Origin: Minisyncoccota bacterium
Lineage (GTDB): Bacteria > Patescibacteriota > Minisyncoccia > Phycocordibacterales > UBA9973
Direction: 5' to 3'
Length of the DNA stretch: 64,000 nt
Assembly: GCA_035994985.1 (NCBI GenBank)
Contig: DASYKZ010000008.1
Location: 3,643-67,642 of the forward strand
A program made the translations under genes and the position numbers. The notes under the pieces are model-generated. The model was not told where the DNA came from. It was given only the letters and a program-made list of their open reading frames with translations, and searched no databases. This document shows positions 3,770 to 54,821 of the stretch, piece by piece. Numbering within the stretch: position 1 is the stretch's first letter; each line of letters begins with the position of its first letter.

Positions 3770-6385
3770 ATGCGTCTACAAAAAATTGTTCTTTTATTTG
3801 CATTTATTATTTTTTCCTGTTTTTTTATTCCGAAAGTTTTTGCTGTTTCCGAATTGGATGTATCTGTCGTGGGCGGCAACTTGCTTATAGATTCCTGCAA
3901 TTCTAATCTGCAGCCCATTATGGGGTATAAGGGTTATGTAAACGATATGGAGATTTTTACTACTGGTCCCTCTGGGGGATATCCTTGCTATGCCAGGGAT
4001 CTTTTTTTCGAAAACATAGCAACTTTTCTCGCATCGTATCCCACTCCTCTTGCTCTAAGATTTGATTTTTATTCTGACCCCGGTTTTAGCTCTCCGGTGG
4101 ATGCGAGTTTTACGATATATTATGATGGCTCTATATTTACCACCACTCCTTCCACTCCGCCCGCTACAACTTTAAGCTCTGAAAAAGCTATTACTTCATT
4201 TAGTTTTCAAGATTTACCCACTCCTGTGAATGGGGTCATTGATGAAACAAATCATACAATTGCTTTGACTGTACCTTTTGACACAGATATCACAGACCTC
4301 CGTCCTACGATTGATATTTCTTCCGGAGCTACTATTTCTCCTGTTAATAACATCGATTTCTCGAATCCTGTCGTGTACACAGTCACCGCAGAAGATGACT
4401 CGACGGAAGAGTATACTGTTATAGTAGTTGTCGGCGCCCTAGTTCGCAATCCTGTTATTATAATCCCTGGAGTTTTAGGGACGGAAATTAGTAAAGGGGG
4501 AGATAAGCTCTGGCTGGATCTTTCACGCAATTTGACAGATATTGGAGATCAATTTATGGATTCTTTAGAGTTTAATGAGGATCTGACTCCTTCGGATTTA
4601 AGTTTGAGCTTAGGGAACGTGATTAGGAAAGAAGTTGCAAAAGTTGGAAATGTGAACTTTCCGCTTTTTGATTATTCAGAACATCTTATTCAAGAATTTC
4701 AGGATCAAGGTTACGTGGAAGGCACAGATATTTTTCTCTTCCCTTATGATTGGCGTAGCGGAGTAAACGAAGGAAACGTAAACCAGCTAAAACAAAAAAT
4801 TGCAGACGTTATAGCAGAGACTGGTGCCAGTAAAGTCGATAGCATAGCACACAGTACTGGCGGGCTTTTATTGAAAAAATATGTGATGGAAAATTCTATG
4901 GACAATCATATTGATAAAGCTGTGTTTGTCGGCGTGCCGAATACAGGAGTCCCAAAAGCTGTGAAAGTATTATTACAAGGAGATGGTTTTGATATTCCAT
5001 TTCTCTCCGATGGAGAAATAAAGAAAATTGCCAAGAATTTACCTGTAATATATGACCTTTTGCCAAGTGAGCAGTATTTTAATAGTAAGGGAAGTTATAT
5101 AAAAGTGATTGAACAAAAACTTTTTGGCTACACAGAAAAGGATTTAAATTTTGATGAAGCAAATACTTTTCTTGCAGTCGACCATCAATTAAATGTGCAA
5201 GCTCTAATCAATTCTCACCATTTACACACTGCGGATTTTGACGATTATGATATGCGTACCGCAGGAGTAGATGTATATGCCATAAATGGATGCAAAGCTG
5301 GAACTTTAGGCAAAGTGAGGGAAGTTCGTTCACACAGTCTTTTTGGAGACTTTACGAGCTATATGGTGCCCGAGCAAATTCCCGGAGATGGCACAGTGCC
5401 ACTTGAAAGCTCTACAAACTTACCCATCAATGAGAGTAATAAATATTATGCCTTAAAAACCACCAACCATGGGAAAATGCTGACTGCGGATGGTATCCGG
5501 CAGCAGATTGTGAATATTATTTCCGGTAGCAATCTCTCTGCGGGTGATATAATTACTCAAAATATTTCAGAATGTAAATTGAGCGGGCGGGCCATTTCTG
5601 TGTATAGTCCTCTCTCTATTGATGTCCTAGACCAAGACGACAACCATGCGGGTTTGGCATCTGATGGAGTGAGTATTGAAAATAATATACCAAATGCAGA
5701 TTTTGAAATTTTTGGCGAGCACAAGTTTATATATTTACCTACTGACGAAGGACAAACATATACGATAAATATTGCAGGCACAGGCACGGGTGTTTTTACG
5801 CTTACTGATACGTCTATAAATGAAAATGATGTGACGGGAATGCAAGTATTTGAAAATGTTTCTGTAACCCCGAGTTTGCTCGGGAATGTTAATCTTTCTG
5901 ATAATACGAGTTTGGATTTAGATACAAATGGAGATGGTACCACAGACGAAACGTTGACGCCGACGGCTTCTCTTAACAGAGAAGAGGCAGAAAATTTTGT
6001 ACCAAACAAAGAAGGGGACACAAACGATAATCCACTCGAAGATGATTCTGCAAGCAATACAAACTCTGGCGGAGACACTATCGCGAAGCCTTCTGATCCG
6101 TTGCCTGCAACTCCTACAGATTCTACAACACCAGCCCAACCCCCGTCAGAAATTATTCCGGCTGTAAAAGAGGAGCCTGCTCCTGAGGCTGGAAACGACC
6201 TTGAAAATCCTAAGCCAAAAGTGGAAAATGAAAAAGCAGAAGAAACACAGCATTTACCACAAGAAAGTTCACTTACCGGAAGCGTTGCTGACAGCAACGT
6301 GCCTATTAGTTATGCAATTGTTATTGCAGTAATTGGAGGAGCTTTACTAATTTCATTGCTAGCAAAAAAATTCAGTAAGTTGTAA
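3770..6385 (+). CDS. secreted LCAT/PGAP1-like alpha/beta-hydrolase (putative phospholipase/acyltransferase) with Pro/Thr-rich stalk and C-terminal TM anchor
   Basis: N-terminal signal peptide; YDWR and AHSTGG (GxSxG) motifs typical of lecithin:cholesterol acyltransferase-like lipases; C-terminal PT-rich region then hydrophobic helix IVIAVIGGALLISLLA. Confidence 0.6.
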   Translation: MRLQKIVLLFAFIIFSCFFIPKVFAVSELDVSVVGGNLLIDSCNSNLQPIMGYKGYVNDMEIFTTGPSGGYPCYARDLFFENIATFLASYPTPLALRFDFYSDPGFSSPVDASFTIYYDGSIFTTTPSTPPATTLSSEKAITSFSFQDLPTPVNGVIDETNHTIALTVPFDTDITDLRPTIDISSGATISPVNNIDFSNPVVYTVTAEDDSTEEYTVIVVVGALVRNPVIIIPGVLGTEISKGGDKLWLDLSRNLTDIGDQFMDSLEFNEDLTPSDLSLSLGNVIRKEVAKVGNVNFPLFDYSEHLIQEFQDQGYVEGTDIFLFPYDWRSGVNEGNVNQLKQKIADVIAETGASKVDSIAHSTGGLLLKKYVMENSMDNHIDKAVFVGVPNTGVPKAVKVLLQGDGFDIPFLSDGEIKKIAKNLPVIYDLLPSEQYFNSKGSYIKVIEQKLFGYTEKDLNFDEANTFLAVDHQLNVQALINSHHLHTADFDDYDMRTAGVDVYAINGCKAGTLGKVREVRSHSLFGDFTSYMVPEQIPGDGTVPLESSTNLPINESNKYYALKTTNHGKMLTADGIRQQIVNIISGSNLSAGDIITQNISECKLSGRAISVYSPLSIDVLDQDDNHAGLASDGVSIENNIPNADFEIFGEHKFIYLPTDEGQTYTINIAGTGTGVFTLTDTSINENDVTGMQVFENVSVTPSLLGNVNLSDNTSLDLDTNGDGTTDETLTPTASLNREEAENFVPNKEGDTNDNPLEDDSASNTNSGGDTIAKPSDPLPATPTDSTTPAQPPSEIIPAVKEEPAPEAGNDLENPKPKVENEKAEETQHLPQESSLTGSVADSNVPISYAIVIAVIGGALLISLLAKKFSKL

Positions 6386-6849: not shown

Positions 6850-7242
6850 ATGAGTCAAGAAGGTATAGAAAAAATAGAGGGAAAAGAAATTGTAACTTCT
6901 GATAATGAAATTCGGACAAGTTCAACTTTTCGTAATGAAACACAACCTGGAACTTTGCTGAAGAAAATTAAACATACACCAGAATACACTGATTTACGGT
7001 TGAAAGAAATTATTGATAATTGCCCAAAGGAGTTTTCAGCAGCTTTGCTTAGGGGTATTATGCATGTGAAATTAAACTACCCTGATGCTTCTAAAAGAGA
7101 ATTAGCCATAGTGACAGAGGCTCTGATAGAAAATCATAAAGCTTATGTAGAGAGGAAAGTAAAAGACCGTATGACCCCTGAGGAAGCTATTGCCAAAGTA
7201 CGTCAGTTATTAGCACAACAAAAATTTGAAACTTCTGAGTAA
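6850..7242 (+). CDS. hypothetical protein
   Basis: 130 aa ORF, AT-rich promoter region upstream, followed by intrinsic terminator. Confidence 0.4.
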   Translation: MSQEGIEKIEGKEIVTSDNEIRTSSTFRNETQPGTLLKKIKHTPEYTDLRLKEIIDNCPKEFSAALLRGIMHVKLNYPDASKRELAIVTEALIENHKAYVERKVKDRMTPEEAIAKVRQLLAQQKFETSE

Positions 7243-40690: not shown

Positions 40691-41393
40691 AAATCAGCAC
40701 GGTTTGAAAATTGAAAACTTAATTCTTGCCCTATTTCTTTTCCCGTTCGCGGGATTGGGTCTTTTTAGAGGCAAGAAAAATTCGTTTACATGGTTATCCG
40801 AGCGGTCGGAAATTATAATTATGTAAAAGGATTCTTGCCCGCCTTTGGCGGGTGAATTTTTCCACTGAAAAGGTGGAATTGTGATTTTCAAATTTCTTAA
40901 CAGGAAATTTAAGGGCGTACGGTGGATGCCTTGACTGTAAGAGGCGATGAAGGACGTAGCAAAGCTGCGATAAGCTTCGGGGAGGTGCCTAGCAACCTTT
41001 GATCCGGAGATTTCCGAATGGGGAAACCCTGCATAGTAAACCTATGTAACTTTTATCTTTATGATAATAAGAGCGTACCCTGGGAAGTGAAACATCTCAG
41101 TACCAGGAGGAGTAGAGAACAATAGTTATTTTCTTAGTAGCGGCGAGCGAAAAGGAAGAAGCCCAAACCGATGTAGCAATATATCGGGGTTGTAAGATGA
41201 CAATGTAGATTTCTAGAAGAGTCAAAAAATACATAATTAGTTGAAGTTGCTGGAAAGCGACACCATAGGGGGTGATAGTCCCGTAAGCGAAAATTATGTG
41301 TCTCTTTTATTGTTATTCTTGAGTACCCCAGGACATGAATGGCCGGGGGGAATCCAGCGGAACTAACCGCTAAGGCTAAATACTCTTACAGAT

Positions 41394-41430
<37 letters not shown>

Positions 41431-42165
41431 CAGCCCGATTAGGGCGGTGAAATAGACCTGAAACCGTATGTCTACAAGGAGTCGATGCACTGCTTCGGCG
41501 GTGCTACGGCGTGCCTATTGAAGAATGAGCCAACGAGTTTATTCATACTGCAAGGCTAAGTGGGCTAAAACCACAGAGCCAAAGGGAAACCGAGTGTTAA
41601 TAGCGCGACTTTAGTAGTATGCATAAGACCCGAAGCCAGGTGAGCTTGCCATGAGCAGGTTGAAGTTCGCAGAAATGCGGATGGAGGACCGAACCGGTAG
41701 ATCGTACAACGTCTTCGGATGACTTGTGGTAAGGAGTGAAAAGCTAATCGAACCTGGTAATAGCTGGTTCTCTCCGAAATAGCTTTAGGGCTAGCGTCGT
41801 GTGTTTTTTCTGGGGGTAGAGCACTGGAAGATTTCGACAGGGAGCAATCTCGCGAAACCTATCAAACTCCGAATACCAGAAACCATAGCACGGCAGTTAG
41901 GCCATGGGGGCGAAGCTCCATTGGCCAAAAGGGAAACAGCCCAGATCTCAAAATAAGGTCCCTAAATATATACTAAGTGTAAGACAAGAAGGTGAGATTT
42001 CTTAAACAATGAGGAGGTTGGCTTAGAAGCAGCCATCCTTTAAAGATAGCGTAACAGCTCACTCATCTAGAGATTTTGCGTCGAAAATAATTGGGGCTAA
42101 GTATATTACCGAATTTGAGGATTCGTAGACTTCATCAAGAAAAAATTGTTCTTTTGTTTTAATGT

Positions 42166-42241
42166 GGGGGCGTAGCTCAGATGGTAGAGCACTTCGCTGG
42201 CAGCGAAGGGGTCGGGAGTTCGATGCTCCTCGCCTCCACCA
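42166..42241 (+). tRNA. tRNA-Ala (anticodon GGC), encoded inside the 23S helix-45 intervening sequence
   Basis: 76 nt cloverleaf: acceptor GGGGGCG/CGCCTCC with G3:U70, D arm GCTC-AGATGGTA-GAGC, anticodon loop CTGGCAG, T arm GGGAG-TTCGATG-CTCCT, encoded CCA. Confidence 0.8.
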
Positions 42242-42277
42242 CTTCATTTTTTGAAGTGAATTGTTTTGTTTTTACGT

Positions 42278-42355
42278 AGCCGCTTAGCTCAACATGGATA
42301 GAGCACTTGCCTAACAAGCAAGGGGTTACGGGTTCGAGCCCCGTAGCGGCCACCA
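42278..42355 (+). tRNA. tRNA-like gene, formally Val (anticodon AAC), atypical (A1:C72 mismatch, A34)
   Basis: D arm GCTC-AACATGGATA-GAGC, anticodon stem CTTGC/GCAAG loop CTAACAA, T arm ACGGG-TTCGAGC-CCCGT, 3' ACCA; may be a tRNA mimic rather than a decoding tRNA. Confidence 0.45.
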
Positions 42356-43170
42356 CCTTACTTTTTGTAAGGTAACAAATATTTTTTCCCAAGGAATTTT
42401 CTTTCGAGAACTTTCTTTGGGTTCTTGATGAAGTCTACGAGTGGTAGGAGAGTGTTCCACTCTGCTGTGAAGGAAGACTCGTGAGAGCTTCTGGAGCGTG
42501 TGGAAGTAAGAATGTTGGCACAAGTAACCGCAATGATGTTGAGAACGCATCACGTCGAAAGATCAAGGTTTCCTTGGTAATGATAATCAGCCAAGGGTTA
42601 GTCGGGCCTAAGGGAATGGTGAAAACCGTACTCGATGGACACAGGGTTAATATTCCCTGACTTCTGTATATAGTGATGGGATGACGGAGGGTAGTATGTA
42701 TCGCTCATTATTGGATTTGAAGTTTATGCCTTAATTGTACGCTATAGGAAAATCCGTAGCGTGACTTAAATGTCATATGAAAGAGGAGTAAAAAGTTTTC
42801 CGTTCGCGGAGGGCAATGATACAAAGCACGCTTCCAAGAAAACTCTCTAAACTTATATATATAGAATCCGTACCGCAAACCGACACAGGTGATCAGGTCG
42901 AGTAGACCAAGACGAACGAGTGAGTGGTCCCCAAGGAACTCGGCAAAAAAGCAGCCGTAACTTCGGGATAAGGCTTGCCCCTCTTTATTGAGGGGCCGCA
43001 GCGAAAGTATCTCTGGCAACTGTTTACCAAAAACACAGCTCCCTGCGAACTCGTAAGAGGATGTATAGGGGGTGACACCTGACCAATGCCAGAAGGTCAA
43101 ATATCGGCGTTTCTAATAGCAATATTATTGGTGACTGATATAAGCCCTGGTGAATGTCGGCCGTAACTAT

Positions 43171-43494
43171 AGACAAAACCGTTGTAGTTACGCAAATAAA
43201 TCTTGCTATATGCTGGAAAACCCGTGTATCTTCAAATACTCATTCAAGGAAACTTGAGTAGTGAAAATTTTGAAGCGTTGCCTAAATCTTAATTGATCGG
43301 TTAACGGATAATCAGCAGGCAACCTGCGCAAGCAGAGAGTCCTCAGAGACTATACGCAAGACAATTTCAAATCAATAATTGGAGTCGACGATTTGAAAAT
43401 GATGATATAGTCCGACCTCTATGGCGACATAGAGCTAACACGTTTTAGTTTTTGTTTGGTAAACAATAGATTACATATTCAACCTTAAGAAAAG
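43171..43494 (+). mobile_element. group I intron in 23S (site equivalent to E. coli ~1917), ORF-less
   Basis: splits conserved GGCCGTAACTAT | AACGGTCCTAAGG; IGS ccgttGTAGTT near 5' end pairs with 5' exon AACTAT (P1, U.G) and 3' exon AACGG (P10); P7 halves cagAGACTAta / gaTATAGTCcgacc (cf. Tetrahymena GAUAUAGUCGGACC); ends in G. Confidence 0.75.
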
Positions 43495-44171
43495 AACGGT
43501 CCTAAGGTAGCGAAATACCTTGTCGGGTAAGTTCCGACGCGCACGAATGGTGTAATGACTGGAGAACTGTCTCGGGGACCAGCTCGGTGAAAATACAATA
43601 CCGGTGAAGATGCCGGTTAAGTGCAGTTAGACGAAAAGACCCTAGAAGCTTTACTATAACTTGATATTGAGTATGTTTTTAGACTGCGTAGCATAGATGG
43701 GAGAGGTTTGATGGATAAGGTTTCGGCTTTGTTCTACTCGTCAGTGAAATACCATTCTTTTTGAAGGCATATTCTAACCAATGCGGCAAAAACGCATTGA
43801 GACAGTATCTGGTGGATAGTTTTACTGGGGCTGTACCCTCCTAAAAAGTAAAGGAGGGGTTTAAAGGTAATCTAGGCGCGAATGGAAACCGTGCCGATAG
43901 TGTAATAGCACAAGATTGCTTGACTGTGAGAGGTACATCTCGAGCAGGTGGGAAACCAGAATATAGTGAACCGACCACCCGTATTAGACGCGGTGGAAGA
44001 TTAACGGATAAAAGCTACTCTAGGGATAACAGGCTAGTTCCGCCCAAGAGTTCATATCGACGGCGGAGTTCGGCACCTCGATGTCGGCTCACCTTAGCGC
44101 GGTGGCGGAGAAGCTACCAAGCGTTTGGCTGTTCGCCAATTAAAAAGGTACGCGAGCTGGGTTCAGACCGT

Positions 44172-44555
44172 TTTGAAAATACAGGCACTAGGCTTTAGGC
44201 GCTAGGCATTAGCATTAGATTTTGCTAGAGCCTAAAGCCTAAATTTCCTAAAGCCTTGTTTTCGGGACAGTCTGAACCCTCAGAGGAAATAAGAGCTCAA
44301 ATGAACTTATACTGTTTTAATCGAAGACAACCAAGTGTATTAAATTACACACCACGGCGGTTCTAAATTTTATTTAGGAAGAAGTCGGGGTTTTCGGTGA
44401 AATCCAATCCTGAGATTTATCGAAGGAGGACAACACCGAGTGCCGTAAAGGCATGTAGAGACTACAAACCGACCACGAGAAATTGTGAATGTATAGTCCA
44501 ATCCCTTTAGTAATAAAGGTTCCGCGCTTGTAGAGCGCGGAAGTAAAATAAAATG
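44172..44555 (+). mobile_element. group I intron in 23S (site equivalent to E. coli ~2593), ORF-less
   Basis: splits conserved GGGTTCAGACCGT | CGTGAGACAGGTTGGTC; P7-like tAGAGACTAcaaa / tgTATAGTCc; ends in G; boundaries +/- few nt. Confidence 0.6.
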
Positions 44556-44989
44556 CGTGAGACAGGTTGGTCTCCTATCTACTGCACTCGTTGATTCTTG
44601 AGAAGATTTGCCCCTAGTACGAGAGGACCGGGGTGAACTGACCTCTGGTGTACGAGCTGTCCTGCCAAGGGCACTGCTCGGTAGCTATGTCGGGAATGGA
44701 TAACCTCTGAAAGCATCTAAGAGGGAAGCCAGCTTCAAGATTAGGAATCGTTAAGAACCCTGAGAGATGATCAGGTTGATAGGCTTTAAGTGTAAGCGCA
44801 GTAATGCGTTCAGCTGAGAAGTACTAATGTTTCGATTCCTGTTAAGAAATTTGGAAATCACACCCCGCACATAACTTACTAAATAATCTAAAAAAATTAA
44901 GTGAATTTTATCTCATGGAATATTCATTTAAAGAAAAAGGTTGTTTGTTAAGTTATGTGCGGGGACCAAAAAATATTCGCTTCGAATAT

Positions 44990-45158: not shown

Positions 45159-45518
45159 ATGATTATGATTAATGGCGATTATTTTTTTGTGATTGTTTTA
45201 GGGGTTGTTGCAGGTACTCGGCTTTTTCTTTTAGCAAACATACCTAGCCCAACTATTAAAGGTTTTCGGACTCGTCATTATATGACTGGGATGGTCTTAA
45301 TTATTTTATCTTTTTTAAGCAATAATCTGGTAATTTTTGCTGTAGGTTACGCTTTCATTATAGATGAATTACCTTTAATTATCGCCAGAGGTCCGGGGCA
45401 TAAAGAACAATACTGGAAACCAGGAGAAGATTATTGGTCTCGTTGGTGTATTGTAGGAGTATTGATTTTAATCTTTTTAACTTATGTTTTTAGGGGCGTC
45501 ATCGCAGGATTAATATAA
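45159..45518 (+). CDS. small membrane protein, unknown function
   Basis: 119 aa, 3-4 TM helices, between 5S rRNA and rpsS. Confidence 0.35.
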   Translation: MIMINGDYFFVIVLGVVAGTRLFLLANIPSPTIKGFRTRHYMTGMVLIILSFLSNNLVIFAVGYAFIIDELPLIIARGPGHKEQYWKPGEDYWSRWCIVGVLILIFLTYVFRGVIAGLI

Positions 45519-45617
45519 CTAAGGATATTATAGGTTTTATTTGACATTTTACCCCAATTTGCTATTATGAAGCCAAGCTCTGTGAGAGCTTTTTTAAATG
45601 AACATACAGTAAAAATC

Positions 45618-45965
45618 ATGACAAGATCAATCAAAAAAGGTCTATATGTGGACGAAAAACTGCTTTCAAAAATCGCAGGCAAAAACCCGCTCAATACCCC
45701 CATGATAAAGACATGGAAGAGGGCTTCCACCATATCTCCGGAAATGCTTGGTTTCGTCTTTGGCGTGCATAATGGCAAGACTCATGTGGAGGTATTGGTT
45801 ACCGAAGACATGGTGGGCCACAAACTCGGCGAATTTTCACCAACAAAGAAATTCATGAAGCACGGAGGAAAAATGCAGAAAGAGCTTGAAGCAAAGAAGA
45901 AAGAGTCTGAAATAGCGGCAGCCAAGTCTGCCACAGCGGCCGCAGCCGATGCAAAGAAAAAATAG
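45618..45965 (+). CDS. rpsS: 30S ribosomal protein S19 (Lys/Ala-rich C-terminal extension)
   Basis: [15 protein letters not shown]...[29 protein letters not shown]; start chosen at MTRSIKKG. Confidence 0.85.
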
Positions 45966-45984
45966 AAAGAAATAATAAAACATC

Positions 45985-46413
45985 ATGAAAGCTTATTTAA
46001 AAAATTACAGACAGTCTCCCCGAAAAGTCCGCCTTGTCGCGGGACTAATAAAGAAAAAGACTGTGGGTGAAGCCATAGCCGAACTTGATTTCCTAGCCAA
46101 GCGGGCGGGCACTCCGATGAAAAAGCTTTTAATGTCAGCCGTAGCAAACGCCAAAGACATGGGCAAGGATGTGGAGAATTTAATTATCAAAGAATTGCGG
46201 GTGGACAAAGGCGTGACTTTGAAAAGGATGATGCCGGCAGCCATGGGCAGCGGACACCGCATAAACAAGCGCACCAGCCATATACTTTTGACTCTGGGAG
46301 AAAAAGTTGTAAAAGCAGAAAAAAAAGTGCAAAAGAAAGTAGCTAAAGTATTACCAACTAAAGTTAAGAAAGCAAAACCCGCCTCAGCTAAAAAAGCTGA
46401 TTCGGGCAAGTAA
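45985..46413 (+). CDS. rplV: 50S ribosomal protein L22
   Basis: AYLKNYRQSPRKVRLVAGLIKKKTVGEAIAELDF. Confidence 0.9.
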   Translation: MKAYLKNYRQSPRKVRLVAGLIKKKTVGEAIAELDFLAKRAGTPMKKLLMSAVANAKDMGKDVENLIIKELRVDKGVTLKRMMPAAMGSGHRINKRTSHILLTLGEKVVKAEKKVQKKVAKVLPTKVKKAKPASAKKADSGK

Positions 46414-46418
46414 TTTAT

Positions 46419-47108
46419 ATGTCAAAAATAGTTCACCCATATGCGCATAGGCTAGTAATACTCCGGGATTGGAAATCCCGCTGGTTTGCTGAGCCGAAAA
46501 AGTATGTAGCCTATCTAAAGGGTGATGTATTAATCCGGCAGTGGCTGGAAAAGAAATTGCGCGGCATGTATGTATCCGGGATTGAAATTGAAAGAAGCCG
46601 AAAAGCTACGCGATTTATAATCAAAACTTCCCGCCCGGGCATCTTAATCGGCCGGAACGGGGAAGGGGCAACAAAGCTCAAAGAAGATATTTTAAAGAGA
46701 ATGGATTATCTAAAACTAGACCGGCCGGAAGATTTCAAGCTTGAAGTCGTCGAAATATCTAGCCCGGAAGCAGACGCGGCCATAGTAGCCTATATGATAG
46801 CCGAAGGCTTGGAAAAGAGGATGCCGTACCGAAGAGTCATCAAGACAATCATTGAAAAAGTCATGGCTGTGCGCGGAGTAGAAGGAGCCCGAGTAGTGCT
46901 CTCAGGCCGCCTCGGTGGCGCTGAAATTGCCCGCACGGAAGATCTCAAGCGTGGAAGTATTCCGCTTCAGACTTTCCGTGCTGACATAGATTTCAAGCGA
47001 GAACGCGCGACGCTTCCATACGGAGTCATCGGCATAAAAGTCTGGATTTACCGGGGAAAAATATTTTCCAAAAAAACAACCAACGATAGCAATAAAGAAA
47101 TAAATTAA
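46419..47108 (+). CDS. rpsC: 30S ribosomal protein S3
   Basis: KIVHPYAHRLVILRDWKSRWFA, KH domain, GRLGGAEIARTE. Confidence 0.9.
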   Translation: MSKIVHPYAHRLVILRDWKSRWFAEPKKYVAYLKGDVLIRQWLEKKLRGMYVSGIEIERSRKATRFIIKTSRPGILIGRNGEGATKLKEDILKRMDYLKLDRPEDFKLEVVEISSPEADAAIVAYMIAEGLEKRMPYRRVIKTIIEKVMAVRGVEGARVVLSGRLGGAEIARTEDLKRGSIPLQTFRADIDFKRERATLPYGVIGIKVWIYRGKIFSKKTTNDSNKEIN

Positions 47109-47112
47109 TTGT

Positions 47113-47541
47113 ATGTTATTACCGAAAAAAGTAAAATTTAGAAAATGGCAGACACAGAGGAGCAATCCAAAGTCGAGGACGCCGGACACCAGGGGCACAA
47201 AGCTTGCTTTTGGTTCTTTCGGCTTGAAATCGGAAACTCAGGCCCGTGTAAAATCAAACCAGATCGAAGCCGCCCGAAAAGTGGTATCCCGTACTCTTAC
47301 GAAAACCGGCAAATACTGGATTCGTATTTTCCCCGACCGACCATTTACCAGTAAAGCTGCGGAAGTAGGAATGGGAAAGGGAAAGGGAGATCCGCAAGGG
47401 TATTGTTTTGACGTGGCTCCAGGACGCATCATTTTTGAAGTAGACGGCGCGCCGGAAGCGATAGCAAGGGAAGCCCTAAGGAAGGCCGGCAGCAAGCTCC
47501 CGGTCAAGACAAGGATAATTTCCAGGGTTCACAAGCAATAA
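47113..47541 (+). CDS. rplP: 50S ribosomal protein L16
   Basis: MLLPKKVKFRKWQTQRSN... RIFPDRPFTSKAAEVGMGKGKG. Confidence 0.9.
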   Translation: MLLPKKVKFRKWQTQRSNPKSRTPDTRGTKLAFGSFGLKSETQARVKSNQIEAARKVVSRTLTKTGKYWIRIFPDRPFTSKAAEVGMGKGKGDPQGYCFDVAPGRIIFEVDGAPEAIAREALRKAGSKLPVKTRIISRVHKQ

Positions 47542-47545
47542 TTAT

Positions 47546-47749
47546 ATGGCAAAGAAAAAGGAAAATTTAAAAGATGTGGGAAGTGCCGAGCTGGAAAAAA
47601 ATCTGGCGACTCTTGGGGAGAGTTTGCGAGTCATCAGATTCAAAGCCGAGGGCTCAAAATCAAAGAATGTAAAAGAAGCGTCAGCGCTAAAGAGAAAAAT
47701 AGCTCAAGCGATGACGGCCTTAAACCAAAAAAAGCAAGCAGTTAAATAA
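47546..47749 (+). CDS. rpmC: 50S ribosomal protein L29
   Basis: 67 aa, position between rplP and rpsQ, ELEKNL...[11 protein letters not shown]. Confidence 0.8.
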
Positions 47750-47772
47750 TCACGCCAAAGGCGCTACCAAGT

Positions 47773-48042
47773 ATGAAAACCAAAACAGCAAAAACAAAAG
47801 ACGCAGCAGCCAAAGAAGGTAATATCCTAAAGGGTAAAGTCGTAGGGGACAAGATGGACAAGACTGTCGTGGTTTCCGTTTCCCGTTTTATCAAGCACCC
47901 ATTGTACGGAAAATTTTACAAAGTCAGCAAGAAGTACAAGGCGCATGACGAGGAAAACAAATCCAAAGTAGGCGACACTGTAGAGATGATAGAAGTCCGC
48001 CCTATGTCCAAGGACAAGCGTTTTAAAGTAATTTATAAATAG
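47773..48042 (+). CDS. rpsQ: 30S ribosomal protein S17
   Basis: [43 protein letters not shown]. Confidence 0.9.
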
Positions 48043-48069
48043 ATAATTTCCCGCCATAGGCGGACAAGT

Positions 48070-48441
48070 ATGATACAACCAGAAACATTAGTAAAAATAA
48101 CAGACAACGCCGGAGGCACCGTAGGAAAGGTGTTCAAGGTTTTAGGCTCTTCCAAAAAGAGATATGCCAGTATCGGCGAACTCGTTATAATTTCGGTCAA
48201 AGTAGCCAGCCCCCGGAAAGGAGTCAAAAAGAAAGACGTGCATCAGGCTGTCGTCGTCCGCACTAGAGCGGCATACCGCCGGAAGGACGGTTCATATATC
48301 CGCTTTGATGACAATGCAGTGGTGATTTTAGAAAAAGGCAAGAAAGACCCAAAAGCCGGACGCGTGTTCGGGCCGATTCCAAGAGAGCTTGCAGAGAAAG
48401 GTTTCCAGAAGATAATTTCCTTAGCACCCGAAGTGATATAG
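48070..48441 (+). CDS. rplN: 50S ribosomal protein L14
   Basis: MIQPETLVKITDNAGGT ... VVVRTRAAYRRKDGSYIRFDDNAVV. Confidence 0.9.
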   Translation: MIQPETLVKITDNAGGTVGKVFKVLGSSKKRYASIGELVIISVKVASPRKGVKKKDVHQAVVVRTRAAYRRKDGSYIRFDDNAVVILEKGKKDPKAGRVFGPIPRELAEKGFQKIISLAPEVI

Positions 48442-48464
48442 ACAATACAAATTTTGATAAATAT

Positions 48465-48770
48465 ATGAAATTAAAAAAAGGAGACAACGTAATAGTAATC
48501 ACAGGCAAGGACAAAGGCAAAAAAGGAAAAATTGTCCGCGTCTTGTTAACTTCTAACAAGGTTATCGTAGAAGGCATAAATATGATTAAGAAGCATCAGC
48601 GCCCTCGCCGGTCCGGAGAGAAAGGCTCTATGAGAGATATGCCGACCCCGATGAGCGCTTCAAACGTCATGATGCTCGACCCAAAGAGCGGAAAGGCTAC
48701 CCGCCTCGGCAAAAAGAAAGTAGGCGACAAGATGGTCCGGATTGCAAGAAAGAGCAATCAAGAAATATAG
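48465..48770 (+). CDS. rplX: 50S ribosomal protein L24
   Basis: MKLKKGDNVIVITGKDKGKKGKIVRV (KOW motif). Confidence 0.85.
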   Translation: MKLKKGDNVIVITGKDKGKKGKIVRVLLTSNKVIVEGINMIKKHQRPRRSGEKGSMRDMPTPMSASNVMMLDPKSGKATRLGKKKVGDKMVRIARKSNQEI

Positions 48771-48786
48771 TAAGAAATATAAATAT

Positions 48787-49341
48787 ATGGCAAACAAACA
48801 CATGACAGTAAAAGAAAAGGAAACGGAAGCATTTTCAAAGATGAAAGCTGATTTTCATTATAAAAATGCCATGGCTGCACCAAAGCTGCAAAAAATTACA
48901 ATCAATGTAGGCACAGGCACTGCTATCAAAAAAGACAAGAATAAAAACGATGCTATATCCGACCGTTTGGCGAAAATTACCGGCCAACAGCCTACTAAAG
49001 TCGGCGCAAAGAAATCTATCGCCTCTTTCAAAATCCGCCAAGGCGACCCTATCGGTATCGTGGTCACTCTCCGCGGCAAGAGGATGTATGCACTTTTGGA
49101 CAAGCTCATAAACGTAGCTCTTCCCCGTACTAAAGACTTTCGGGGCATCAACCGCACCTCAGTGGACAGCATCGGCAACGTGACTATCGGCATAAAAGAA
49201 CACACTATTTTTCCGGAAACAGCCGACGAAGACAGCCGCGATGTGTTTGGCATGTCGCTGACTATAGGCTCTACAGCGAAAGATAAAAAAGAAGGCATGG
49301 CTTTCTTCACACTCCTCGGCATTCCTTTCAAGAAGGAATAA
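48787..49341 (+). CDS. rplE: 50S ribosomal protein L5
   Basis: PKLQKITINVGTGTA ... IGIVVTLRGKRMYALLDKLINVALPRTKDFRGIN; start at MANKHM preferred over overlapping upstream ATG. Confidence 0.9.
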   Translation: MANKHMTVKEKETEAFSKMKADFHYKNAMAAPKLQKITINVGTGTAIKKDKNKNDAISDRLAKITGQQPTKVGAKKSIASFKIRQGDPIGIVVTLRGKRMYALLDKLINVALPRTKDFRGINRTSVDSIGNVTIGIKEHTIFPETADEDSRDVFGMSLTIGSTAKDKKEGMAFFTLLGIPFKKE

Positions 49342-49477
49342 TTGACTAATTAAGACAATTTTATATAATTTAAAAATGAAAGAATTAAAGCTTTTTACAA
49401 TGGTAATCAAAACCCTAATTATTCGTCATATATAAGTGTGTGTTGTTATTAACAATCTATATTAGTATAATAATATT

Positions 49478-49969
49478 ATGAACGATGTAAATCATGAAAA
49501 AATAGAAAATTTAGCATTGAGTATATTAGATAGTTATAATATTACAGAACCAGTAGTTGATGTTACCAAGATAGCTAAAGATAAAGGAATAGAAATTAAG
49601 GAGATATCAATGCCTACGGGATATAACGAGGTTGCTGGTTTCTATGACAAAGATCAAAAAACTATTTATATTGAAGCTAGCGACAAACCATCTCGAAAAT
49701 TGTTTACCATTGCACATGAATTGGGCCATATTTTTTTGGAGCATACAAATTATGGTGTTCTTTTTCGAATTCCTAAAAAGGATGCAAATTACATAAAAGA
49801 GGAAAAAGAAGCTAATAGTTTTGCAGCTAATTTATTAATGCCAGTAAACATGGTATTTGATTATATGGAAAAATATAATCTTTCTCATTCGGACTACAAA
49901 AAAATGTCCGATATATTTGGTGTTCCTATAGTTGCTATGAAAATGCGACTAGAAGACCATCTTAAATAA
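49478..49969 (+). CDS. ImmA/IrrE-family (DUF955) zinc metallopeptidase
   Basis: HELGHIFLEH (HExxH) with downstream conserved Asn/Glu region; AT-rich gene inserted between rplE and rpsN. Confidence 0.6.
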   Translation: MNDVNHEKIENLALSILDSYNITEPVVDVTKIAKDKGIEIKEISMPTGYNEVAGFYDKDQKTIYIEASDKPSRKLFTIAHELGHIFLEHTNYGVLFRIPKKDANYIKEEKEANSFAANLLMPVNMVFDYMEKYNLSHSDYKKMSDIFGVPIVAMKMRLEDHLK

Positions 49970-49970
49970 T

Positions 49971-50339
49971 ATGGATGAAGTAGAAATAAAACCAGAAGAT
50001 ATTGTTTCCAAGTTGAGTAATTCTGGTAGTGACGTAGATGAGAGTACTTTCTATTGGTTCGATAAGTTACAACAAGAAAAAAAGGAAACAGAAACAACAG
50101 AAAAAAAGGAAAATGAAGGTATTCTGGGCATGAGGAAAGTGTGGTCTCGCACAGTTCTTTGTCTAATTGTAGCGATAGTTATTTTTGATATGGTGCTTGT
50201 TATTTTGTATGGGTTGGGAAAGTTAGATTTCCAAGACTCAAATGTTGTAATTGTTATTATAACTGATAATTTTCTAAAGATTTTTGGTTTAGGATATTTA
50301 ATTACTAGAGAAATTTTCAAGAAAATCTACCATAGATAG
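49971..50339 (+). CDS. hypothetical protein with acidic/Lys-rich N-terminus and one TM helix
   Basis: 122 aa, translationally coupled to ImmA-like gene (stop/start overlap). Confidence 0.35.
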   Translation: MDEVEIKPEDIVSKLSNSGSDVDESTFYWFDKLQQEKKETETTEKKENEGILGMRKVWSRTVLCLIVAIVIFDMVLVILYGLGKLDFQDSNVVIVIITDNFLKIFGLGYLITREIFKKIYHR

Positions 50340-50544
50340 TCTTTAAGTTGACTATTTTTGGTAAATTTGCTACTATCTAAGTAGGGGAATATGGCTTTGA
50401 TTAATCCGCTTTTCTCCTTTAGACCTTATATTGCTTAGTCAATTTGGGCTTAAAGAAAAAAAGTGAGATATTATTGAAGTTTAGCTCCGACCAGAGTCGG
50501 AGTAATGATTTTAATAGTCATTTCATTCCTTTAAAATAAATCAT

Positions 50545-50730
50545 ATGGCAAAAACATCCGTTATAGCGCGAAGCAAAAAGACACCAAAGTTCAGCACCCG
50601 GCAAAAAAACCGATGTTTTCGCTGCGGCCGGGGCAAGGCTTTCATGAGGGATTTCGGCCTATGCCGTATTTGTTTCAGGGAATTAGCAAATGAAGGAATG
50701 TTGCCAGGGGTTCGCAAATCGAGCTGGTAG
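50545..50730 (+). CDS. rpsN: 30S ribosomal protein S14 type Z (zinc-binding)
   Basis: 61 aa, CFRCGRGKA...CRICFRE. Confidence 0.85.
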
Positions 50731-52090: not shown

Positions 52091-52651
52091 ATGGATAAAC
52101 CAAACCCACAAGCGAATAATACGGATACAAGAAGGAATAACCCGAGGAGAGGCTCTTCTTTCGGCCGGCCAAAACCGGAATTTGACCAGAAGATTTTAAA
52201 TATCCGCCGGGTTACCCGGGTCACGAGTGGCGGACGCAGGTTTTCTTTTAGCGTCGCCTTGGTTGCCGGAGACCGCAAAGGCTCTATCGGGCTTGGCCTT
52301 GGCAAAGCCGGAGATACGGCGCTTGCTATCAATAAAGCCGTCAAAAATGCCAAGAAAAACATGGTTAAGCTCAATCTGACAAAGACAATGAGTATTCCCC
52401 ACGAGCTTTCTGCCAAGTTTTCCGGCAGTTCTGTGGTTCTCATCCCAAATAAAGGGCGCGGAATCGTAGCGGGAACAGTGGTGCGCGATATCATAAAGCT
52501 CTCCGGCATGAAAGACATTACAGGGAAGATTTTATCCAAGAGTAAAAATAAACTGAACAATTCCAAAGCAGTCATGAAAGCGCTTGCTCCTGTTTCCTTA
52601 AAGTATACAAAAGTAGTAAAGCCGGCAGTTCCAAAAACTGTAGCAGAATAA
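52091..52651 (+). CDS. rpsE: 30S ribosomal protein S5
   Basis: ILNIRRVTRVTSGGRRFSFSVALVAGDRKGSIGLGLGKAGDTALAINKA. Confidence 0.9.
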   Translation: MDKPNPQANNTDTRRNNPRRGSSFGRPKPEFDQKILNIRRVTRVTSGGRRFSFSVALVAGDRKGSIGLGLGKAGDTALAINKAVKNAKKNMVKLNLTKTMSIPHELSAKFSGSSVVLIPNKGRGIVAGTVVRDIIKLSGMKDITGKILSKSKNKLNNSKAVMKALAPVSLKYTKVVKPAVPKTVAE

Positions 52652-52655
52652 TTTT

Positions 52656-52955
52656 ATGCAAATACATGACTTAAAAAGAACTCATAAGAACAAGAAGGAC
52701 AGGATGGTCGGCCGCGGAGGCAAGCATGCCAAGACTTCAGGCCGCGGAGGCAAAGGGCAGACAGCCCGCGCCGGAAACAAACGCCGCCCCGAACTTCGTG
52801 ATATCATAAAGAAGCTCCCAAAGAACAGGGGATATAGCTTCAATTCTAAAAAGAAGCCGCTTATCCTCACGAGTGATAAGGTGACCAAGGGCGAAAAGTT
52901 TTCCGAGATACGAAAGCGCTTGGGCGTGAAAGGAAAAAAGATTATACTAAAGTAA
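52656..52955 (+). CDS. rplO: 50S ribosomal protein L15 (short form); no rpmD (L30) between rpsE and rplO
   Basis: RVGRGGKHAKTSGRGGKGQTARAG Gly/Arg-rich N-terminus. Confidence 0.7.
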   Translation: MQIHDLKRTHKNKKDRMVGRGGKHAKTSGRGGKGQTARAGNKRRPELRDIIKKLPKNRGYSFNSKKKPLILTSDKVTKGEKFSEIRKRLGVKGKKIILK

Positions 52956-54290: not shown

Positions 54291-54821
54291 ATGTCTGATG
54301 AAAATCGTAAAATAGAAATAATATTAACTGGAGGAACCATAGACTCTACATGGGACGGTATTTCCGATACTGCAACTGTGAATTCTCATTCAGTCATTCC
54401 AAATTATTTTAAAAAGTTAATTGTTTATCCTGAAGTAAAATTTAATGAAATTTGCATGAAAGACAGCCGACAAATTAACGAGCAAGACATTTCTAAAGTA
54501 CTAGAATCTATTGAAAAAAGTGAAGCTAATAAAATTATTATCACTCACGGCACTTATACAATGCCAGACACTGCTAAGTTCATTGAAGCAAATCTAACCA
54601 GGAAAGACCAAACAATTATTTTTACTGGTTCGATGGTTCCATTGGAAGGATTTTATCCAACCGATGCACCCTTCAACTTAGGTTTTGCAGTTTCAAAATC
54701 CCAGGAATTGTCTCCTGGGATTTACCTGTGCATGAATGGGGAAACATTTACTCCGCAAGAAGTTGCCAAAAATTTAGGAGAAGGCAAGTTTTATTCTATA
54801 TTTCAAAAAAATATTAATTAA
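54291..54821 (+). CDS. L-asparaginase N-terminal-domain-like protein (catalytic Thr motif TGGTIDS), stand-alone
   Basis: IEIILTGGTIDS and HGTYTMPDTA resemble asparaginase/GatD N-domain; only 176 aa (no C-terminal domain). Confidence 0.5.
   Translation: MSDENRKIEIILTGGTIDSTWDGISDTATVNSHSVIPNYFKKLIVYPEVKFNEICMKDSRQINEQDISKVLESIEKSEANKIIITHGTYTMPDTAKFIEANLTRKDQTIIFTGSMVPLEGFYPTDAPFNLGFAVSKSQELSPGIYLCMNGETFTPQEVAKNLGEGKFYSIFQKNIN

Follow-up and report, generated by a model that had tools for sequence, protein, structure and literature searches.

Between the ribosomal-protein (r-protein) genes rplE and rpsN, a 64,000-nucleotide (nt) stretch of contig DASYKZ010000008.1 from a Minisyncoccota bacterium (hereinafter designated the window) carries a compact two-gene module encoding a stand-alone Peptidase_M78 metallopeptidase (hereinafter designated the M78 protein) and a 122-aa membrane protein (hereinafter designated the partner). 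The same pair recurs at unrelated loci in other genomes, and the site that it occupies here lies upstream of a conserved rpsN promoter and a structured leader RNA. We see about an even chance that the pair is a toxin-antitoxin (TA) or abortive-infection module resembling RosmerTA and lacking its usual helix-turn-helix (HTH) domain, a reading drawn by analogy. The host genome is Paceibacterota/Nomurabacteria-like and belongs to the Candidate Phyla Radiation (CPR); its L5 protein is 63-86% identical to L5 of 80 Nomurabacteria/Paceibacterota genomes, and NCBI assigns its proteins to Candidatus Paceibacterota.

A protease and a membrane protein in the rplE-rpsN gap

The gap from the rplE stop codon (49341) to the rpsN start codon (50545) measures 1,203 nt, in keeping with the break of about 1.2 kb described in the first-pass annotation, which had been made from the sequence alone. 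Its features and the two flanking genes are as follows; window coordinates are used, and ORF, GC and UTR stand for open reading frame, G+C content and untranslated region.

48787-49341, plus strand: rplE, ribosomal protein L5 (Pfam Ribosomal_L5 and L5_C; gene call of 184 aa)
49342-49369, plus strand: left-hand copy of the segment that carries the host's rpsN promoter (TTGACT-16-TATAAT), right behind the rplE stop codon (promoter scan 11/12)
49363-50347, plus strand: inserted DNA proper, ~985 nt (alignment break against the relatives L010, L011 and L017; GC 0.27-0.33)
49443-49471, plus strand: the module's own promoter-like site, TTGTTA-17-TATAAT (promoter scan 10/12)
49478-49969, plus strand: stand-alone Peptidase_M78 (ImmA/IrrE-type Zn metallopeptidase), 163 aa (PF06114; Foldseek; AF2)
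49971-50339, plus strand: membrane partner, 122 aa (alignment; hydropathy; AF2 helices)
50348-50376, plus strand: native rpsN promoter, with -35 element TTGACT (50348-50353) and extended -10 element TGCTACTAT (50368-50376) (promoter scan)
50377-50544, plus strand: predicted native structured 5′ UTR of rpsN-rpsH and the genes that follow (RNAalifold; covariance model)
50484-50503, plus strand: window-specific extra hairpin, GCTCCGAC-CAGA-GTCGGAGT (terminator scan; minimum free energy fold)
50545-50730, plus strand: rpsN, S14 in its 61-aa Zn-ribbon form (Pfam Ribosomal_S14, 82.8 bits)

By profile, HExxH-plus-glutamate signature and fold, the M78 protein belongs to the Peptidase_M78/ImmA-IrrE family (PF06114, COG2856). 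The PF06114 profile matches at 65.5 bits (cut-off 22) over positions 1-122 of 123 with the HExxH motif intact, bearing out the first-pass assignment to the ImmA/IrrE (DUF955) peptidases, and residues H80-E81-x-x-H84, H89 and E109 (the downstream glutamate of 'EANSFA') are invariant in 66 homologues. In Foldseek searches with an AlphaFold2 (AF2) model (pLDDT 90), the top matches are CapP (7t5t), IrrE (3dte) and PprI (8sln), at probability 1.00 and TMq 0.62-0.69, and a M. tuberculosis regulator is also among the best structural matches; sequence matches in the PDB include IrrE at 1e-10 and CapP at 3.5e-7. The invariant catalytic residues and the CapP/IrrE fold suggest that the protease is likely active. 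The PADLOC hidden Markov model (HMM) for CapP scores 89 bits and covers only positions 3-150 of 242, and sixteen PADLOC RmrA models match (best 72.2 bits, E 8.8e-21) over only profile positions ~125-290 of ~380 (starts at ~125-148), in both cases the protease part. The protein has no Pfam HTH match and, at 163 aa compared with 240-330 aa for its structural matches, no C-terminal sensor domain.

The partner ORF begins 1 nt past the M78 stop codon (TAA-T-ATG), a spacing consistent with the tight coupling of the two genes noted at first pass, and the ORF list and Pfam likewise agree with that annotation in placing no HTH ORF in the gap. Hydropathy shows a pair of hydrophobic segments in the partner, at 57-83 and 92-111, in place of the single transmembrane (TM) helix originally assigned to it, and AF2 models the protein as a helical hairpin with helices 26-81 and 90-119. 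In the alignment, the membrane hairpin is the most conserved portion, a juxtamembrane motif (E47 N48 ... R55 ... W58) is conserved, and the acidic N-terminal region (1-45) is variable; the membrane motifs are invariant over 31 homologues. The N-terminal 56 residues carry a net charge of -6, and by the positive-inside rule the acidic N-terminal domain is predicted to be cytoplasmic. Searches of Pfam, NCBIfam, PADLOC, PHROGs and PDB give nothing significant (in PADLOC, none at E<=1), and the partner appears to belong to no described family. Of the clusters (50% identity) that its own profile retrieves, 422 reach E<=1e-3 and 102 reach E<=1e-10. The label 'NapE' on one JGI homologue was rejected as a small-membrane-protein artefact.

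The pair recurs as a unit at unrelated loci

Homologues of the M78 protein form about 60 clusters at 56-88% identity, all of 160-170 aa, and those of the partner form 29 clusters on the same short contigs as the M78 homologues. At all loci looked up, the M78 gene precedes the partner gene, and the spacing ranges from 1-13 nt (mostly 1-4) to an 8-nt overlap. The settings of the pair differ from locus to locus (loci carry our L numbers):

L004: pair after intron-rich 23S/5S ribosomal RNA (rRNA) genes
L005: pair between dnaE and thrS
L007: pair after rny
L251: pair after a sortase gene
L253: pair between pilB and response-regulator/pilT/pilC genes, in a type IV pilus operon
L256: pair after an aminoacyl-tRNA synthetase gene
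L260/L261: pair after rplM-rpsI
L259 (Ca. Peregrinibacteria CP065009.1, complete genome; 1-6411): distant pair after a Type III restriction enzyme gene
L262-L264: distant pair between genes for a phage-like polyvalent protein (LPD38) and a tyrosine integrase; M78 at 43% identity

All three distant partner members examined (L259, L260/L261 and L262-L264) are preceded by a ~165-aa M78 protein, and hhalign confirms the partner in L262-L264 (98.6%). From these alignments, the M78-membrane pair appears conserved as a unit down to 43% M78 identity. A metagenome scan with the M78 profile returned almost exclusively distant M78 proteins, at 28-45% identity, and one close locus (L090). Two candidates were set aside: L002, considered as an independent strain copy, is 100% identical to the window and not independent, and an apparent M78 pseudogene beside an intact partner in L260, which would oppose an antitoxin role, proved to be a gene-calling error, the M78 ORF being intact. 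The row of genes in L259 runs from the Type III restriction enzyme through the M78-membrane pair and a 370-aa protein of unknown function to a large serine recombinase, possibly a defence islet on a mobile element.

The closest module copy, in L004, has an M78 protein at 88% aa identity and nt similarity of 80% over window positions 49442-50333. Because this similarity spans the module's own -35 element to the end of the partner gene, we take the module unit to be about 0.9 kb. This copy is flanked by a direct repeat of 74 nt (84% identity; L004 positions 5814-5887 and 6855-6928) that resembles the 3′ half of 5S rRNA, and a third partial copy of the repeat starts at 7041. The repeat hints at an integration that duplicates its target.

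The breadth of this family bears on two alternatives. One is that the M78 protein is an orphan anti-repressor cleaving an XRE/HTH repressor encoded elsewhere, with the membrane protein as passenger or signal input. ImmA/ImmR, IrrE/DdrO and CapP/CapH classically work by repressor cleavage, the M78 protein is nearest to IrrE and CapP in sequence and fold, and its L262-L264 relatives lie near integrases. We nevertheless regard this alternative as unlikely: no HTH gene adjoins the module in any locus examined (in L007, an HTH_3 gene lies 2 kb away, beside a methyltransferase), the membrane protein is the invariant neighbour of M78 proteins as divergent as 43% identity, and the C-terminal sensor domain that activates IrrE/PprI and CapP is missing. 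The other alternative, an inert, decaying remnant of a mobile element, would suit a small, AT-rich cassette with no mobility genes nearby. It is highly improbable given that both ORFs are intact and coupled, that their motifs are invariant over 66 (M78) and 31 (partner) homologues, that two independent samples yielded an identical sequence and that the promoter is conserved in the closest copy. The first-pass suggestion of an orphan remnant of a repressor switch is unlikely, the M78 protein being always accompanied by the same membrane family, with both intact and conserved.

Base composition

In 300-nt windows, GC is 0.27-0.33 across 49250-50450 and 0.41-0.50 in the flanking r-protein genes, a profile that supports the AT-richness reported earlier. 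The M78 gene has GC 0.30 and third-position GC (GC3) 0.22, and the partner gene GC 0.31 and GC3 0.28, compared with a mean GC of 0.419 (standard deviation 0.058) and a mean GC3 of 0.421 for the window's 63 ORFs. Twelve of these 63 ORFs, including those of other islets, are comparably AT-rich (GC <= 0.35); low GC is the mark of a class of accessory islets and of no unique event.

Insertion boundaries and module promoter

The extent of the insert is given by L010, the nearest species representative, in which window positions 45534-49362 and 50348-50473 match contiguous DNA at 76% nt identity. Alignments to L010, L011 and L017 break at 49341-49362 and resume at 50348-50363 (L010 and L011) or at 50544, at rpsN (L017). 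Because L010 joins 49362 directly to 50348, the insert proper is about 49363-50347. The first-pass annotation had treated the whole of 49342-50544 as inserted, which is too long, as 50348-50544 is the native rpsN promoter and leader. Window segments 49342-49362 and 50348-50368 both align by blastn to L010 positions 4556-4576; TTGACTA and its spacer, about 21 nt from the native promoter region, lie on either side of the insert. Around the modules, the only direct repeats are promoter-like ones of 16-21 nt and the 74-nt duplication in L004, and no terminal inverted repeats that could serve as transposon ends occur in five module loci. The direct repeats are suggestive and establish no integration mechanism.

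The -35 element of the module's own promoter lies within the palindrome TTGTTATTAACAA (TTGTTA-T-TAACAA, perfect), which is not fully kept in L004. Its -10 element ends 6 nt ahead of the M78 ATG, and L004 and L252 have -10-like hexamers 6-7 nt ahead of the M78 start. Since the -10 element sits 6 nt from the ATG, the M78 mRNA may be leaderless. A terminator scan of the window found no terminator in the interval from rplE to the cassette, nor in that from the cassette to the leader, and read-through at both junctions is possible.

The rplE-rpsN junction is a lineage-wide hotspot

We fetched the rplE regions of 80 species representatives and located genes by tblastn; 66 loci hold both rplE and rpsN. 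The two genes are 145-366 nt apart in 28 species, and 486-3,786 nt apart with varied cargo in the other 38. The pair lodged, according to the first-pass annotation, inside one of the most conserved operons of the genome; yet rplE and rpsN were never tight in this lineage (145-3,786 nt, 66 species). Because 38 of the 66 relatives carry other cargo there, we call the junction a hotspot: it is a recurrent landing pad at an operon boundary in Nomurabacteria/Paceibacterota. Neither the M78 protein nor the partner is encoded at this site in any of the relatives (0/66); taken with the direct junction in L010 and the recurrence of the pair elsewhere, this upholds the view that the module was acquired.

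The long gaps of the relatives hold 90 very varied ORFs of 60 aa or more. Among them are nine N_methyl pilin-like proteins; guanylate and adenylate kinases, TruB and dCTP deaminase; PemK/MazF with MazE, SocA_Panacea, and Gp49 (HigB-like) with HTH_3; reverse transcriptases (RVT_1) with bAvd; and AAA_14/DUF4143 ATPases (PADLOC candidate PDC-S01) and CAAX proteases. L083 and L089 hold ORFs of 448-536 aa that cluster together and are possibly the two reverse-transcriptase matches. All of the cargo lies upstream of the conserved rpsN promoter, and several relatives have an intrinsic terminator right behind rplE. The hotspot is undescribed in the literature as far as we searched, and extends known phenomena.

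These data also bear on whether the pair could have a non-selfish accessory function in CPR bacteria, for instance regulated proteolysis of a membrane sensor or membrane-protein quality control, with a tendency to lie behind highly expressed operons. The pair is always co-directional with a housekeeping gene and 50-180 nt downstream of it, the window has no mobility gene, and module GC is 0.28-0.31 in hosts of 0.34-0.45 and 0.39-0.42 in hosts of 0.46-0.54, this tracking of host GC suggesting long residence in CPR genomes. Such a function is quite unlikely in our estimation, given a patchy distribution in which location differs per lineage, the lack of the pair at this junction in close relatives, and a module GC consistently 10-14 points under the flanks (8/8 loci examined). 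Integrases, a recombinase and a restriction enzyme as neighbours in other lineages, and bona fide TA modules in the same hotspot of relatives, also speak against it.

Native rpsN promoter and leader RNA

The sequence TTGAC-N14-17-TGnTAnnAT is located 127-216 nt before the rpsN ATG in 59/67 loci. With its own conserved promoter and structured leader, rpsN does not support the description of the cassette as being inside an operon, the cargo lying upstream of both. The insertion thus appears to leave rpsN regulation intact, the downstream genes keeping their own promoter.

In the leader, helix 1 pairs 50402-50411 with 50461-50473 around a bulged U50469-A50470 and is followed by an invariant UUUCUCCUU loop, then helix 2 (50417-50419 with 50453-50455) and a variable hairpin. 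RNAalifold predicts 22 pairs from a 43-sequence leader alignment, and compensatory changes occur at 16 of these. Pairing holds in 93.8% of cells, compared with 79.0% in column shuffles (0/500 reach the observed value) and 37-56% when the pairing partners are slid, and double-sided changes number 164 where 59 are expected, counts in which much of the covariation falls between two sequence subtypes and which reflect fewer independent events than they suggest. A covariance model of the leader has one plus-strand match in the window (50368-50507, 72.7 bits) and matches 65 relatives, including about 20 loci outside its training set; all matches lie just upstream of rpsN, and none in unrelated loci. 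Rfam yields no match, a permissive scan of 49300-50600 giving chance-level matches only (E 1-8). With this conserved, covarying 5′ UTR structure, the element is a candidate r-protein leader; it is undescribed in the literature as far as searched, and extends known phenomena. The extra hairpin (50484-50503), in the 3′ part of the leader, is terminator-like with only a weak T tract behind it, and is missing from most relatives in the alignment.

The invariant core of the leader, 5′-RAUC-3′ opposite 5′-GA[UA]UY-3′ with a bulged UA, resembles the binding site of S8 in E. coli spc mRNA and 16S rRNA helix 21. We verified the E. coli 16S sequence A595-C599 / G639-U644, in which we take the S8-site pairing to be A596-G597-U598-C599 / G639-A640-[U641-A642]-C643-U644. 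The two-base UA bulge of the leader core mirrors that site, and the leader is located upstream of the S8-encoding operon. The two differ in that the leader precedes rpsN, whereas the E. coli element lies at the rplE start, and in that an invariant A-U pair in the leader replaces the E. coli G597-C643 pair. S8 acts in E. coli as a repressor of the spc operon, at rplE, and the element is restricted to Gammaproteobacteria (PMC3616713). Because the core resembles the S8 site and S8 represses E. coli spc, an S8-responsive rpsN-rpsH leader is a reasonable hypothesis, which by this analogy we hold to be possible at somewhat below even chances. The leader was also compared with the window's 23S and 5S rRNA, the targets of L6, L18 and L15; mimicry was rejected, as only an A-rich 11-mer is shared.

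A RosmerTA-like reading of the pair

RosmerTA is defined as a Zn-peptidase antitoxin with a toxin of unknown function (10.1101/2022.05.11.491447), and in the networks of type II TA systems the ImmA-type protease serves as a hub antitoxin domain (PMC10440598). Like RosmerTA, the cassette has two genes, one encoding an M78 Zn-peptidase domain (RmrA HMMs up to 72 bits) and the other a small, familyless protein, and its distribution is mobile and patchy. The RmrT families are heterogeneous, and one of them (D5) is a membrane toxin: RmrA of Gordonia phage Kita pairs with RmrT-D5, which has a C-terminal membrane region, depolarises cells and acts in phage defence (PMC10440598). By contrast, RmrA is described as 'often' having an N-terminal XRE HTH (PMC10440598), which the 163-aa M78 protein lacks; the protease gene of the cassette comes first, its hosts are CPR bacteria and its partner falls outside the RmrT models. 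The cassette is known here from sequence; RosmerTA systems, which join such a protease to diverse toxins, defend against phages. RosmerTA membership is thus partial: the Zn-peptidase is present, the HTH is absent and the partner is unrecognised by family models.

As a RosmerTA-like module, the pair would work through the hairpin protein as a membrane effector, acting by pore formation or depolarisation, with its acidic N-terminal domain facing the cytoplasm. The M78 protein would restrain this effector by cleaving or binding the N-terminal domain or, alternatively, would release it on a trigger, either phage infection or module loss; the outcome would be addiction and/or abortive infection. 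Because the M78 protein has no DNA-binding or sensor domain, unlike RmrA, ImmA, IrrE and CapP, control would be purely post-translational. The earlier suggestion of an anti-phage sensor possibly holds in this form.

ImmA/ImmR (of the integrative and conjugative element ICEBs1 and phage phi105), IrrE(PprI)/DdrO of Deinococcus and CapP/CapH of cyclic-oligonucleotide-based anti-phage signalling systems (CBASS) share the M78 fold and HExxH...E signature with the cassette, but cleave an adjoining XRE-type repressor and have an extra C-terminal signal domain; the cassette has no HTH gene and no extra domain, and its conserved neighbour is a membrane protein. An ImmA/ImmR-type switch would have an adjoining XRE/HTH repressor gene, which was not found, and a prophage or mobile-element location beside integration/excision genes, whereas the neighbours of the window copy are rplE and rpsN and only the distant L259 and L262-L264 lie near recombinases. 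Likewise, there is no CapH (HTH) gene or CBASS operon, the neighbours being r-protein genes. Panacea (PanA) with its small membrane toxins (PanT), like other type II TA pairs whose toxins depolarise membranes, is comparable in another respect, combining a cytoplasmic antitoxin-like protein with a short toxin that has a hydrophilic N-terminus before its TM helices (PMC10440598), and a SocA_Panacea gene occupies the rplE-rpsN hotspot of a relative; the Panacea antitoxin domain is DUF4065 rather than M78, and the membrane partners are unrelated in sequence.

The roles may also be reversed, with the M78 protein as a toxin that cleaves essential cytoplasmic proteins and the membrane protein as its antitoxin or tether, which would sequester or inhibit it at the membrane. 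COG2856/M78 proteases have been proposed, or are reported, to be the toxic component opposite Xre-type antitoxins (Makarova 2009, PMC2701414; Brucella ZnMP/HTH-Xre, PMC10538038); moreover, PDB entry 7t5t is titled 'CapP toxin', and the catalytic site of the M78 protein is invariant. However, conservation in the partner is highest in the membrane hairpin and not in the cytoplasmic region that would have to contact the protease, the leading position of the protease gene is the one more often taken by antitoxins (PMC10440598), and NetFlax and RosmerTA experiments put the ImmA domain on the antitoxin side. We consider reversed roles decidedly unlikely.

Several observations weigh against the RosmerTA-like reading. 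We infer the functional role from architecture, mobility and analogy; the HTH carried by most RmrA proteins is absent from the M78 protein, and the partner matches neither RmrT nor any other PADLOC model. A strictly conserved active site is needless for a simple binding antitoxin, and a reversal of roles or another substrate for the protease is conceivable. No recombinase lies in or adjoining the window copy, and IMG/VR viral contigs contain no close M78 homologues (56% identity or more), their matches being generic prophage M78 proteins of at most 39% identity. Two similar promoters could in part account for the flanking 'duplication', which is short. AT-richness is common to about a fifth of window ORFs, and composition by itself does not prove recent transfer.

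A more ambitious reading joins function, integration and regulation, and is rather unlikely to hold in all its parts. The pair would be a distinct defence/addiction system, common among CPR bacteria, in which the M78 protein gates a membrane pore directly by cleaving its acidic cytoplasmic N-terminal domain, with no DNA-binding component. Promoter-targeting or homology-assisted integration of the 0.9-kb unit would duplicate 20-75 nt of target and occur by preference where highly expressed operons end (rRNA, r-protein, dnaE, pilB), and the rpsN leader would be a new S8-type autoregulatory RNA marking the operon boundary used as landing pad.

CPR/Patescibacteria have tiny genomes with few recognised defence or addiction systems, and a recurrent compact module of protease and membrane effector in several CPR classes would add a testable defence candidate. 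If the RosmerTA-like reading is true, the module represents a minimal form of the ImmA/RmrA logic, with an M78 protein controlling its partner without a DNA-binding part. The rplE-rpsN boundary, an accessory-gene hotspot in more than half of related species, also offers an unreported r-protein leader candidate, possibly S8-responsive. On these data the cassette no longer counts as the breach of an operon; it is one cargo among many at a lineage-specific boundary, a candidate minimal module for a protease-gated membrane toxin, in a lineage whose conserved r-protein block is split into separate transcription units. This is relevant to genome annotation, to binning and phylogeny that draw on r-protein synteny, and to regulatory-RNA discovery in uncultivated bacteria.

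Gene order and other features of the window

The rplE start is an ATG, and a TTG at 48742 is likewise open; the rpsN product is 77-100% identical across relatives. The first-pass annotation described a canonical r-protein run interrupted after rplE. The interruption stands, but the run opens at rpsS, directly after the 23S-5S rRNA genes, with unrelated genes farther upstream and no S10-L3-L4-L23-L2 genes upstream of rpsS in the window. Because S10-L2 are located elsewhere, the r-protein cluster was already fragmented in this host. Downstream, rpsE (junction at 52651-52656) is directly followed by a short 99-aa L15 gene, without rpmD (L30) between them; loss of L30 is a known CPR trait.

Two further AT-rich islets occur in the window, a 119-aa membrane ORF without family match at 45159-45518, between 5S rRNA and rpsS, and a 176-aa asparaginase-like gene at 54291-54821, between secY and kinase genes. 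Within the 23S rRNA gene (40898-44846), an insertion at 42166-42355 holds two predicted transfer RNAs (tRNAs), Ala-GGC and Val-AAC (59 bits each); 23S model positions 1-1234 stop at 42170, and positions 1191-2925 resume at 42350, near helix 45. The location of the tRNAs within the insertion implies that the 23S rRNA is fragmented by tRNA processing, and tRNAs in rRNA insertions are unmentioned in a survey paper on CPR rRNA insertions. The same 23S rRNA gene contains a group I intron (82.5 bits) at 43105-43434, which is a known CPR trait.

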